This document shows, in pieces, positions 4,644 to 31,447 of a stretch of 32,000 bases of DNA (position 1 is the stretch's first letter; each line of letters starts with the position of its first letter). Both the position numbers and the translations under genes were made by a program. The notes below the pieces were generated by a model. That model ran no database searches, had not been told where the DNA came from, and was given only the letters and a program-made list of their open reading frames with translations. Origin of the DNA: Candidatus Jordarchaeales archaeon (GTDB lineage Archaea > Asgardarchaeota > Jordiarchaeia > Jordiarchaeales > Freyrarchaeaceae); the NCBI GenBank assembly GCA_038889235.1, contig JAWAHN010000001.1, forward strand, positions 794,499 through 826,498. The letters run 5' to 3'.

Positions 4644-4763
4644 TATTAAAACAGTTTAATTAAAAATAAACTTGAAATTTTTACTTCTCTTAGAACGGCA
4701 GTGGTCTTTAAAAGCAATCTTAGAATGAAGATTTCGAAAAACGGAGGTGCGGAGGCTGTTTCC

Positions 4764-8285: not shown

Positions 8286-9326
8286 ATGGGCGTAAATCTG
8301 AGGGAACTTGTTGTTGCGCGACCGATATCTATTGGGGATCTTTCAGGTAAGGTCGTAGCGATAGACGCTATGAATGCGCTCTACCAGTTTTTAGCAACAA
8401 TAAGGCAACCTGACGGAACCAGCCTTATGGATAGTAGGGGGAGGATTACTTCGCACCTTAGTGGCTTATTTTACAGAACGGTTAACTTTCTGGAGGAAGG
8501 GTTGAAGCCTGTTTATGTTTTCGATGGAAAACCTCCTGTTCTGAAAATGAAGACGGTAGACGAGAGGAGGAGGATAAGGGAGGAAGCTAAAGAGAAGTGG
8601 GAGGAGGCATTAGCCAAGGGAGAGATAGAGGAGGCTAGGAAGTATGCTCAAGCTGCTTCATTCATAACAGATGAAATGATAGGGGAAAGCAAGAAGTTGT
8701 TAGAAGCGCTTGGAGTGCCTTATGTCCAAGCTCCTTCTGAGGGGGAGGCACAAGCAGCATATATGGTTAAAAAGGGAGATGCGTGGTGCACTGCAAGTCA
8801 AGATTACGACTCGCTTCTATTTAATGCGCCGCGACTTGTAAGAAATTTGACTATTAGTGGAAGGAGAAAGCTTCCAGGAAAAAAGGAGTACGTGAAAATT
8901 GAGCCGGAGCTTATACTCTTAGAGGAAGTTTTGAGGACACATGGGTTAACGCGGGAACAGTTGATAGCGATAGGCATCCTTTTGGGCACAGATTATAACG
9001 AGGGAGTTAAAGGCGTTGGCATCAAAACGGCCCTAAAGCTCGTCAAAGAATACGGTTCAATTAAAGAGATAATTAAGCGAAAAGGGTACGTTTTTGAGGT
9101 TCCAGCTGAGGAGGTAGAGCGGATTTTCTTAGAACCCGAAGTTAGTGACAACTACACTTTAACTTGGAGCCCTCCTGACAGCGAGAAAGTTTTTAAAATA
9201 CTTTGTGACGAACATGATTTCTCGCAAGAAAGGGTTTCTAAGGCCCTCGAAAGACTGGAAGTAAAGGGGAAGAAAGCGGAACGGGCTGGCAAGACTGCAC
9301 AAACCAGTATAGATAGATTCTTTTAA
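8286..9326 (+). CDS. fen: Flap endonuclease 1
   Basis: [45 protein letters not shown]; C-terminal PIP box QTSIDRFF. Confidence 0.98.
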
Positions 9327-10043
9327 TCGAAAGATGATTGCTCCCATCCATAGCGCCCTATAAGTGGGACAAAAGATACTGGACCGTAGTCCCTTTTCTT
9401 AATTTTGCCCTCTTCATCTTTTTCCACCACCACGAGCGTTTGGTTGTAGTAAAACCTGCCGATTGGTATAACCATGCGGCCTCTTGGTGCAAGTTGAGTT
9501 AGAAGCGGCTCAGGGATCGATGGGCCGGCAGCAGTCACAAGTATAGCGTCGTAAGGCGCTTCTGGAGGGTATCCCAGAGTTCCATCACCTAGAATAACAG
9601 TTACCCTGTCTCCGTACCCTGTCTTTTCTAAATTGCGCCTGGCGAAATCTACTAGTTCCTCTATGCGTTCTATGGTGTAAACGTGGCCGTGTTTTCCTCC
9701 TTCAGGAGCAACTATTTCAGCGCACAGTGCAGCGTGGTATCCCGACCCTGTTCCAACTTCGAGGACTTTCATCCCTTCGCGTAGCTTCAAGAGATCGCAC
9801 ATTAGAACGCACATATGTCGCCTAAAGGGCTTCAGTAAGCCCTTTAAGTGGCGCGGATATTGTTTGTCCTCCCGGTATGGGAAGGGGGCGATCGTCATAT
9901 GCGTACTTCCTTAAATCCTCTGGAACGAATTCTTCTCTAGGAACTTTCATGAACGCCCTAATTACGGCTTCATCTCTGACAAAACCTTCCTCTATAAGCC
10001 TTTCTATGAGGGCTTTTTTCTTTTCTAAGAGAGAGTCGTTCAA
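9323..10043 (-). CDS. pcm: Protein-L-isoaspartate O-methyltransferase, two exons (10043-9848 and 9816-9323), 229 aa after splicing
   Basis: N-part ...VPREEFVP...[18 protein letters not shown] and C-part HMCVLM...[10 protein letters not shown]...[12 protein letters not shown] are in different frames. Removing 31 nt rejoins the conserved QTISAPHM motif. Confidence 0.92.
9817..9847 (-). other. Putative 31-nt BHB-type intron in pcm mRNA
   Basis: mRNA-sense: CGCC-[AC^U]-UAAAGGGCUU-acug-AAGCCCUUUA-GGCG-[AC^A]. Perfect 4-bp central helix, 10-bp intron stem and two 3-nt bulges; cuts after bulge nt 2 restore the frame. Confidence 0.85.
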
Positions 10044-10130: not shown

Positions 10131-10559
10131 ATGGTGAAGGTTGTTGAAAGAATAACAGCTAGAGGACACCCGAACATTTCAGCGAAGCATAAAACAACTT
10201 TGGAAATTACCATGGATCACGAGCTTACCCCTAGAGGGGACTGTATAATAGCGGTTTCGTCTGACAAAGGAGCAGCGTCACTAAGCGCCGCATTTAAAGA
10301 AATAGCTAGAGATGATGAGGCCATGATACGAATGATTATTATGTGCGGTGGGTTGAAGGAGGAGGTTGTAGGGTTTGGATGTAAAAAGCTAACTTTTACA
10401 CATACCAAGGACCTAGTTGCAAGAAAGAGTAACTATTGCTGTGGGAGAACCTTAATGATCAGGGCGAATAAAGCTGCAGCAGACTTGGATAGGCGAATAG
10501 TAGAAGAGCTAAAAAAGCCACAACTTGTAGAAATAATTCTCATAGTCGAGAAAATTTAG
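10131..10559 (+). CDS. DUF371-family protein
   Basis: ARGHPNISAKHKTTLEIT...LTPRGDCIIAV...RKSNY...RTLMIRANKAAADLDR matches the conserved archaeal family pattern. Confidence 0.85.
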   Translation: MVKVVERITARGHPNISAKHKTTLEITMDHELTPRGDCIIAVSSDKGAASLSAAFKEIARDDEAMIRMIIMCGGLKEEVVGFGCKKLTFTHTKDLVARKSNYCCGRTLMIRANKAAADLDRRIVEELKKPQLVEIILIVEKI

Positions 10560-10566
10560 TCTCCAT

Positions 10567-11679
10567 TTAAGGGCGAACTACCGCGTCTACAGCTATTTGC
10601 CATTCCCTAGGCGCTGTGGAGCGAACACGCCTAACATTTAAGACTTTCACAAGAGAAGCGCCTACTTCACCAAGCTGTTTTTCAAGAAATTTGACGACGC
10701 TATCACATGCATCCTTGTCCCTACCGAACTGGTAGTAGTGTATGACGCCACCTTTTTCCTTTAAAGCCAAGCATGCCACGTCAATAAATTTACATGCTGA
10801 ACTTGGAAGGTTCATTATCACGTGATCGGCTATCCGCTTTAGTTTGGCGTTAACTACCTCCCTGCAGTCTCCTAGGTGAGGATGAACTAAGCCGGATACC
10901 TTGTTCAGTTTAATGTTCTCTTCAAGAAGTTGTATGGCAAACGGGTTGATGTCTATGGCGTGCACGATGCCGCTCCTCATCTTTGCTATCAAAATGGAAA
11001 ACGGTCCTACTCCTGCGAAAAGATCGACAACGACCTCTCCTGGGTTAACCTGGCTGGCTACCCTAACCCGCTCCCCTGACAGGCGAGGGCTAAAATAGGT
11101 GTTGGCAACGTCAACCTTGAAGATACAACCATTCTCCTTGTGAAGGGTTATCGTCCGCGCTTCTCCGGCTATGTGAACTAGACGCCTAACTCTGTAAACT
11201 CCATTCACACGACCACCCTTAGCAAATACGGCTTTCACGTGACGATTTGATCTTAGAATAGCATCACCGACTGCACTCCTAAATTCCCAAATCTCAGGAT
11301 TCAGCTCTACAATGGCTATATCGCCTATAATGTCAAGGGAGTGAGGAATGTGGGTGAGAAAATTTTTGGGGACTACTTTTTCAAGTAGCTCACTAATCTT
11401 AGGTTGCTGTTCCCTTACGGGGAAAGAGTAAAAACAAACGTGAAGAAAACCGGATACCATCCTTAAGCGTTCGAGCTCTGGTTTAAGAAGAGGGCGGGTT
11501 ATGGGAAAGAGAACTAAAACACAACATGAGTCCGATGAGCTTGGAAACACATCTACGTCGACTCTTTCAACTTTGAGCTCATTACTCAAAACACTAAGTC
11601 CAGATAAAAGCCGGCGAATTGGCTCAGCAATTTTGGAACAAACAGCAATGCTAAGAGAGGAACGTCTCATAATTAACAC
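10567..11679 (-). CDS. trm5: tRNA G37 methyltransferase, Trm5/Met-10+ family
   Basis: DIIGDIAIV, TLHKENGC, YFSPRL, VVDLFAGVGPF, AIDINP, VIMNLP. Confidence 0.88.
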   Translation of the reverse strand: MLIMRRSSLSIAVCSKIAEPIRRLLSGLSVLSNELKVERVDVDVFPSSSDSCCVLVLFPITRPLLKPELERLRMVSGFLHVCFYSFPVREQQPKISELLEKVVPKNFLTHIPHSLDIIGDIAIVELNPEIWEFRSAVGDAILRSNRHVKAVFAKGGRVNGVYRVRRLVHIAGEARTITLHKENGCIFKVDVANTYFSPRLSGERVRVASQVNPGEVVVDLFAGVGPFSILIAKMRSGIVHAIDINPFAIQLLEENIKLNKVSGLVHPHLGDCREVVNAKLKRIADHVIMNLPSSACKFIDVACLALKEKGGVIHYYQFGRDKDACDSVVKFLEKQLGEVGASLVKVLNVRRVRSTAPREWQIAVDAVVRP

Positions 11680-30893: not shown

Positions 30894-31447
30894 ACGAAGA
30901 AGCCATAGAGGAAAAGTGGAAGAAAAACCCCATGTACAAACCTTACATAGCAAAGGTTGTAGTAAACATAGGTGTTGGAACAAGTGGCGAAAAACTTGTA
31001 AAAGCCATGAAGGTGTTAGAAAATCTAACAGGGCAGAAGCCGGTCGAGTGCAGAGCTAAGAAAACTATAAGGGAATTTGGAATTAGAAGGCGTGAACCCA
31101 TAGGATGTAAAGTAACTCTTAGAAAAGAAGCGGCAAGAATTTTCCTAGAAAAAGTGTTAGATGCCGTGGACAGAACGATAAACCCAGATTCATTTGATAA
31201 ATATGGCAATGTGTCGTTCGGTATACGCGAGCACATAGACATACCGGGAACAAAGTACGACCCTGAGCTTGGAGTTTTCGGCATGGATGTATGCATTTCG
31301 TTTGAAAGACCAGGGTACCGTGTTAGTAGGAGAAAGAGAAAGAAAGCGAAAATTCCGTTGAGACAAAGGGTTACTAAAGAAGAAGCTATGTTAATACTAA
31401 AAAAGGAATTTAATGTTAAGTTTGGAGAAAGAGCTAAGAAGTGGTGA
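30881..31447 (+). CDS. rpl5: 50S ribosomal protein L5 (uL5)
   Basis: VVVNIGVG, FGIRRREPIG, SFDKYGN, YDPELGVFGMD. Confidence 0.97.
   Translation: MEQLNEEAIEEKWKKNPMYKPYIAKVVVNIGVGTSGEKLVKAMKVLENLTGQKPVECRAKKTIREFGIRRREPIGCKVTLRKEAARIFLEKVLDAVDRTINPDSFDKYGNVSFGIREHIDIPGTKYDPELGVFGMDVCISFERPGYRVSRRKRKKAKIPLRQRVTKEEAMLILKKEFNVKFGERAKKW

Follow-up and report, generated by a model that had tools for sequence, protein, structure and literature searches.

How can an intact protein-L-isoaspartate O-methyltransferase (Pcm) be made from a gene whose reading frame is broken inside a conserved motif? This question is raised by the pcm gene on the minus strand of the window, i.e., the whole stretch of 32,000 nucleotides analyzed here, where a short insert follows the codons for the amino acids QTISAP. 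The sequence-only reading of the locus had taken the insert for an intron of the bulge-helix-bulge (BHB) type, and we examined this proposal against the gene, its relatives and the genome.

Organization of the pcm Gene

The first exon of pcm was located at 9848–10043 (minus strand), within the ORF 9822–10043 given by the ORF tool, and the second exon, taken from the ORF list, was located at 9323–9816 (minus strand). The PCMT profile (PF01135, length 210) matched exon 1 at profile positions 2–59 with an E-value of 1e-14 and exon 2 at positions 61–208 with an E-value of 1.6e-49. Both matches were far above the cut-off, and the positions covered by the two exons show that only the junction codon is absent. 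Exon 1 was found to end with QTISAP and a C, the first base of a His codon, and exon 2 was found to start with the AT of this codon, followed by MCVLMCDLL, and to run to a stop. When the exons were joined in silico, a single open frame of 229 amino acids was obtained from 10043 to 9323 (minus strand), in which the QTISAPHM motif is restored. The translation of the ORF 9822–10043 showed that the unspliced frame runs from exon 1 into a stop, as the earlier reading had also stated.

The spliced Pcm was found to contain a SAM-binding motif and clustered with the Pcm proteins of relatives in a phylogenetic tree. No second true PCMT gene was found in the genome (2.14 Mb in 8 contigs, 95% complete). 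The start codon of pcm predicted by the ORF tool was a TTG at window positions 10041–10043 (minus strand); an ATG upstream of this TTG meets a stop immediately. The neighbors of pcm were the genes encoding a flap endonuclease (8286–9326, plus strand), a DUF371 protein (10131–10559, plus strand) and a Trm5/TYW2-type methyltransferase (10567–11679, minus strand). The nearest named relatives of the genome were Candidatus Jordarchaeia/Jordarchaeales MAGs (Asgard archaea) from hot springs.

In the public protein records of the genus (P0001, P0003, and P0121–P0126), pcm was represented by an ORF of 163 amino acids, or by an ORF of 190/191 amino acids with a frame-shifted N-terminus, together with a separate ORF of 70–73 amino acids. 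The protein databases are without an intact Pcm enzyme of the genus. A spliced full-length Pcm of the genus was absent from a collection of 5.8 billion proteins, where the exon-2 piece and its clusters gave only the ORF calls of 163 and 190/191 amino acids. No full-length protein was near-identical to an exon-2-only protein; the best one was 91% identical. The calling of pcm as truncated ORFs of 163 or 190/191 amino acids shows that BHB-aware gene calling is needed in these lineages.

Bulge-Helix-Bulge Element of the Insert

The minus strand from 9853 to 9816 was found to read ...ATATCCG CGCC ACT TAAAGGGCTT ACTG AAGCCCTTTA GGCG ACA TATG... in its surroundings. The exon strand of the central helix, CGCC (9850–9853, minus strand), lies within the Ala-Pro codons GCG CCA and pairs with the intron strand GGCG (9819–9822, minus strand), giving exactly 4 bp between the two predicted cleavage sites. 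The 5' bulge ACU occupies 9847–9849 (minus strand) with a predicted cut at 9848/9847, and the 3' bulge ACA occupies 9816–9818 (minus strand) with a predicted cut at 9817/9816. The inner hairpin at 9823–9846 (minus strand) is formed by a stem of 9846–9837 with 9832–9823, in which 10 of 10 pairs are perfect Watson-Crick pairs, and by a loop of 4 nt, ACUG (9836–9833). The helix, the two bulges, the 10-bp stem and the 4-nt loop were thus all found in the sequence as the sequence-only reading had described them.

When each bulge is cut behind its second base, 9847–9817 (31 nt) is taken out and GCG CCA C|AT ATG is left, i.e., A-P-H-M; this outcome had been claimed for the canonical cuts, and the single frame of 229 amino acids agrees with it. 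The identical spliced sequence is obtained from three registers (9849–9819, 9848–9818, and 9847–9817), which also bears out the three equivalent registers of the earlier reading. Structure, frame and fold, the occupation of the same site in 37 related genes and covariation all point to a 31-nt BHB intron with the canonical register 9817–9847 (minus strand).

In the minimum free-energy fold of 81 nt (-26.1 kcal/mol, z = -2.4), the central helix, the 3-nt 5' bulge and the stem were all recovered. The 5' bulge ACU is canonical, with the central helix on one side and the 10-bp stem on the other side. Next to the 3' bulge ACA, the outer helix consists of one G-U pair only, and at this place the minimum-energy fold has a 3x2 internal loop closed by UAU/AUA instead; the 3' site in this genome is therefore of the relaxed type and not canonical. 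The name of a textbook BHB, given to the element earlier, hence fits the helix, the 5' bulge and the stem, but not the 3' site. In 9 of 15 aligned genes of relatives, the outer helix at the 3' bulge contained a G-C and a U-A pair. Relaxed motifs are acceptable to the (alpha-beta)2 type of the splicing endonuclease EndA (PMC5829648, PMC2738675).

BHB-like matches with a stem of at least 10 bp and no G-U pair were found only three times in the whole 2.14-Mb genome on both strands, and the pcm insert was among them. The BHB of pcm is more than a chance match, as its position coincides exactly with the break in the reading frame of the conserved motif. Searches of the window with Rfam and ARAGORN gave no match. 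Elsewhere in the window, weak BHB-like matches with 6-bp stems were observed at 4659–4686 and 31115–31146 (both minus strand), flanked by frames of only 54–72 codons; these are probably due to chance.

Splicing Enzymes and Proposed Mechanism

The genome was found to contain two genes with an EndA domain (PF01974), at C1:1056164–1056754 and C3:444022–444609, and one RtcB gene, at C1:~704100–705600. The EndA of 196 amino acids keeps the Tyr, His, and Lys positions and was most similar to the PDB chains 3p1z_B, 3ajv_B, 2zyz_B, and 2cv8_A, which we take to be the catalytic subunits of crenarchaeal two-subunit enzymes. In its paralog of 195 amino acids, the catalytic His aligns to a Val. A predicted catalytic subunit paired with a putative non-catalytic one fits the (alpha-beta)2 architecture. 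Asgard archaea have been reported to possess an (alpha-beta)2 EndA with broad specificity conferred through a loop (PMC5829648), and this architecture was shown to cut the relaxed motif of cbf5 (PMC2738675; PMC10485636). Of the 16 tRNA genes detected by ARAGORN, 10 contained introns, several of which were at non-canonical positions, and one call contained an 'intron' of 1333 nt. Since only 16 tRNA genes were detected and their introns were unusual, many tRNA genes are probably hidden by multiple or unusual introns.

With these enzymes, pcm would be transcribed as a pre-mRNA in which CGCC in the Ala-Pro codons of exon 1 pairs with GGCG at the 3' end of the intron, and the 10-bp hairpin of the intron would stack on the central helix and expose the two 3-nt bulges, separated by four base pairs. 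The two-subunit EndA would cut after the second base of each bulge, at 9848/9847 and 9817/9816, and RtcB would ligate the exons and probably circularize the intron. The mature mRNA would then be translated into the Pcm of 229 amino acids, with the His codon composed of C and AT and QTISAPHM rebuilt. As the frame is broken with the insert in place, its removal is needed for an intact enzyme. We regard it as highly likely that 9847–9817 (minus strand) is an archaeal BHB intron in the coding sequence of pcm that would be cleaved out of the pre-mRNA and followed by ligation in the cell; the alternatives weighed below are unlikely even when taken together.

Same-site Inserts in Other Archaea

The pcm gene was found to be split at profile position ~60 in 15 of the 41 Asgard genomes sampled; four of these are relatives in the same family, six belong to a second family in the same order, and the rest to three further families. 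To these, a wider scan with one genome per GTDB species added Baldrarchaeota, Atabeyarchaeia, and many Bathyarchaeia. Inserts at the same codon were present in 37 of the 106 genes compared, and these belonged to Jord-, Atabey-, and Baldrarchaeia and to Bathyarchaeia. The pcm loci of Thor-, Loki-, Hermod-, and Sifarchaeia and of Methanomethylicia were intron-less. One gene (L028 of genome G013) was left out of the intron-bearing set, as it had been flagged in the tree script but showed only an in-frame length difference of 6 nt. The occupation of the same codon in Asgard classes and Bathyarchaeia implies either a great age of the intron or a transfer of an intron-bearing gene between phyla.

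The length of the introns ranged between 25 and 35 nt (n = 37), and the five introns with a length divisible by three contained an in-frame stop. All 37 inserts had C as the first base and AY as the last two bases, so that the His codon is always rebuilt as C+AY. The 5' bulge was ACN and the 3' bulge was NNA in each of the 37 genes. The Ala-Pro codons of the intron-bearing genes were GCG CCA (34/37) or GCA CCA (3/37), whereas among the intron-less genes GCG CCA was found in 1/69 and either of the two forms in 4/69, and the synonymous codons varied freely. The synonymous sites of the exon at Ala-Pro are thus fixed only where the intron is present. In the relative G006, the insert starts with CGC and ends with AAC, and a His codon is obtained from one register only (CCA C|...|AC ATG), which is the canonical BHB register. 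In L122 and L125, two intron-less genes placed within the intron-bearing Bathyarchaeia, the sequence is identical to the junction predicted for splicing. On the Pcm tree, the intron state needs 6–7 changes as compared with ~31 for shuffled labels; the deep branches joining the intron-bearing genes of Asgard archaea and Bathyarchaeia had moderate support (80–91).

The spliced junction predicted for the genus was not found in the JGI metagenome contigs. A broader junction pattern retrieved 120 stretches, none of which was more than 80% identical to any intron-bearing gene; at this level of identity they are ordinary intron-less Bathyarchaeia genes, and they were rejected as RNA-derived spliced pcm.

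In JGI and ENA metagenome contigs (L176–L295), many intron-less Bathyarchaeia-like pcm genes were observed to keep GCG CCA CAY ATG, the codons typical of intron-bearing genes. Such codons would fit a recent and precise loss of the intron, with the limit that none of these genes exceeded 80% identity to an intron-bearing gene in the set.

Covariation of the Insert and the Exon

The covariation alignment contained 15 intron-bearing sequences. The structure given above was paired in 94% of the cells as compared with 32–56% when the 3' partners were slid, and the covariation score was reached by 0 of 500 shuffles. In the inner stem, all 8 of the 8 tested pairs had changed on both sides, although the compared sequences are related and such counts overstate the number of independent events. 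The central helix was paired in 100% of the 15 aligned genes, and likewise in 37/37 of the wider intron-bearing set, including a pair between exon and intron in which G-C is swapped for A-U: wherever the exon reads CACC in place of CGCC, the intron reads GGTG in place of GGCG.

These compensatory changes, both in the hairpin and in the exon-intron helix, are left unexplained if pcm is a split gene without splicing. In such a gene, the insert would be kept and a 73-aa N-terminal peptide would assemble with a 163-aa C-terminal protein started from the ATG after the insert, or the C-terminal piece would work alone. It is true that exon 2 starts with ATG throughout, that GGCG/GGUG is found 5–6 nt upstream, loosely like a ribosome-binding site, and that public gene callers annotate exactly those two ORFs. 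However, the Met belongs to the conserved SAPHM motif and occurs in the intron-less genes too, and GGCG would mismatch the usual GGUG core complementary to the 3' end of 16S rRNA in most genomes. The split gene likewise gives no reason for the fixed GCG/GCA CCA in exon 1, for the invariant C...AY, or for the intron-less relatives with the exact spliced junction. We consider this explanation improbable as compared with splicing.

Selection on the Exons and Remaining Alternatives

In comparison with three congeners, pN was 0.06–0.12 and pS was 0.64–0.74 for both exons; with the synonymous sites near saturation, both exons of pcm are under strong purifying selection. The dN/dS of exon 2 against G004 was disregarded, as an indel shifts the ungapped comparison. 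Further frameshifts or stops were not found in the pcm genes of relatives; the comparison of pcm among relatives, made with an eye to degenerate stems and accumulating pseudogene lesions, gave neither.

Strong purifying selection on both exons, in a genome with no other copy of pcm, requires that the intact protein be made. This speaks against the possibility that EndA cuts the BHB and the exons are never or only sometimes religated, so that the site would serve as a cleavage off-switch or a decay site for the pcm mRNA. The eukaryotic TSEN is known to cleave some mRNAs for decay (PMC10485636), and partial splicing would be in line with the proposed conditional expression; but in each of the 37 genes the His codon is rebuilt precisely, for which there is no need unless the exons are ligated. 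Cleavage without ligation is about as improbable as the split gene.

A third possibility, ribosomal bypass, is still less probable; here the insert would be skipped during translation in the manner of the 50-nt gap in gene 60 of phage T4. A stable hairpin is present right after the take-off region, and in several relatives a CAY codon is found at both ends of the insert. In this genome, however, the codon after CCA is CUU and not CAY, and the insert of G006 has CAY at neither end, so that hopping cannot give the His. Bypass also assigns no role to the covariation of the exon-intron helix or to the geometry of the 3-nt bulges.

The locus was 100% identical, including the insert, in two independent NCBI MAGs from hot-spring samples (GCA_038821275.1 and GCA_038834185.1). 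In a diverged strain covered by two separate sequencing runs (SRR32459162 and SRR32459163), the DNA identity over the gene was 86% (119 mismatches in 904 nt). The insert was present in this strain, where the two stem arms and GGCG had not changed and the loop was longer by one base, giving a length of 32 nt. If the gene were dead and the hairpin inserted by chance, or if the stretch contained an assembly or sequencing error, the broken frame and the treatment of pcm as truncated by annotation pipelines would be accounted for, but this is hardly credible in view of the identical insert in independent assemblies and its recurrence in both runs of the diverged strain, a pN far below pS on both exons of the only pcm in the genome, the lack of other lesions, and the occupation of the same site across several classes with the structure maintained.

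Splicing from the pre-mRNA therefore remains the preferred explanation. The functional mRNA intron put forward in the sequence-only reading gains support from the same-site conservation, the compensatory changes, the fixed synonymous codons, the purifying selection, and the EndA and RtcB encoded in the genome. On these comparisons of sequences, the conserved BHB intron in pcm is confirmed as real, and its removal from the mRNA by the tRNA-splicing enzymes is very probable.

Other Interrupted Genes of the Genome

A strict genome-wide BHB scan gave 74 candidates, which were followed by homology and comparative checks. Most of the candidates are chance hairpins. A filter on codon usage was dropped, since it would have lost cbf5 and a radical-SAM gene. 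The candidates L131, L133, L136, and L138 were rejected as interrupted genes, as they represented adjacent complete genes. Besides pcm, four coding genes with putative BHB introns were verified in the genome by comparison with relatives and homologs, i.e., cbf5 and the genes for an FAD-binding oxidase, a radical-SAM protein and a hexapeptide-repeat protein.

The cbf5 gene (L129/L130), which lies outside the window, contained a BHB intron of 29 nt at C1:835887–835915 (plus strand), with the central helix CACU/GGUG and the bulges AGA and AAA. Canonical cuts would give CUA G|AU CCU (L-D-P), and the catalytic Asp codon is thus split after its first base. The intron was present at the same site in five relatives (G001–G004 and G006) with a length of 27–35 nt and with compensatory changes. 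An intron at the same Asp-codon position has been published for crenarchaeal cbf5, with a distribution limited to Desulfurococcales and Sulfolobales (PMC2738675).

The gene encoding the FAD_binding_4 oxidase (L134) contained a BHB insert of 27 nt with an in-frame stop at C3:304889–304915 (plus strand), reading TCAG AAA ... CTGA AAA, and its Pfam domain was split into 1–80 and 93–139. Inserts of 22–36 nt were found at the same site in G001–G004, and the gene of G006 was intron-less and read exactly the predicted junction. In the radical-SAM gene (L135), an insert of 28 nt with the junction SGT|I|FF was found at C1:964013–964040 (plus strand), just before CxxxCxxC; it was present in 5 of the 5 relatives checked, with a length of 27–31 nt and compensatory stem changes. 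The gene encoding the hexapeptide-repeat protein (L139) contained an insert of 32 nt, GTTC GAA ... GAAC AGG, at C1:1035681–1035712 (minus strand). The insert was also present in its orthologs in G003 and G004, where the stem had been rebuilt, and a single codon occupies this place in contiguous homologs.

It is rather likely, on the strength of these genes, that pcm is one of a whole set of Jordarchaeia protein-coding genes whose mRNAs need the tRNA-splicing machinery, five of which were verified here. If true, routine protein-only splicing of mRNA among archaea closely related to eukaryotes would bring a new element into the debate on the origin of intron-containing genes and of non-spliceosomal splicing of the HAC1/XBP1 type.

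Comparison with Known Systems

In the literature searched, a BHB intron in an archaeal coding region was reported for cbf5 alone (Watanabe 2002; Yoshinari 2006; Yokobori 2009, PMC2738675), and a BHB intron in the leader was reported for HVO_1309 of Haloferax volcanii (PMC7714728; PMC10485636). Endonuclease-dependent mRNA introns were thus known there from two archaeal mRNAs, cbf5 (coding) and HVO_1309 (leader). A pcm intron or BHB introns in Asgard mRNAs were not found in the literature searched, and a 2026 preprint on Asgard tRNA introns makes no mention of mRNAs. It was expected in a 2023 review that more archaeal mRNA introns are likely to be found (PMC10485636). The pcm gene would be the second coding-gene family, with the intron in one codon in Asgard archaea and Bathyarchaeia, which suggests that this mode of expression is wider than thought; several further interrupted genes in the same genome likewise point to a wider use. 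An intron of 31 nt with two EndA subunits and RtcB would also be a simple system for testing splicing against coupled translation in archaea.

Like the crenarchaeal cbf5 intron, the intron of pcm is short, contains no ORF and lies in the coding sequence, and it forms an hBHBh'-like motif in which bases of the exon are paired with the 3' end of the intron. In both cases, the predicted or known cuts are located after the second bulge base and the intron interrupts a codon within a conserved active-site motif; both are linked to a two-subunit EndA and show a patchy distribution with secondary precise losses. They differ in the host gene, which is pcm here, and in the distribution, which comprises Asgard classes and Bathyarchaeia and not Desulfurococcales or Sulfolobales. 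The splicing of cbf5 was shown experimentally, whereas we infer that of pcm.

The 5' UTR intron of HVO_1309 is similar to that of pcm in that an mRNA is the substrate of the archaeal splicing endonuclease. Unlike in pcm, it is located in the untranslated leader, interrupts no frame, and is cut by an enzyme of the alpha2 type. With the BHB introns of archaeal pre-tRNA and pre-rRNA, the pcm intron shares the helix of 4 bp, the two bulges of 3 nt (the 3' one being of the relaxed type in this genome), and the presumed enzymes EndA and RtcB, and its size is similar to that of tRNA introns, which range from 11 to 175 nt (PMC2738675). The host RNA of pcm, in contrast, is a messenger, so that the removal of the intron must restore the frame and compete with translation.

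Beyond archaea, the pcm intron may be compared by analogy with HAC1/XBP1, as in both a short frame-changing mRNA intron would be excised without a spliceosome. In HAC1/XBP1 of eukaryotes, the excision at stem-loop sites is carried out by proteins only, where IRE1 cuts and RtcB or the tRNA ligase Trl1 joins. A role of RtcB in XBP1 splicing has also been mentioned in the literature searched (PMC8718801). In contrast to pcm, the nuclease of HAC1/XBP1 is IRE1 and not EndA/TSEN, and its splicing is regulated by stress.
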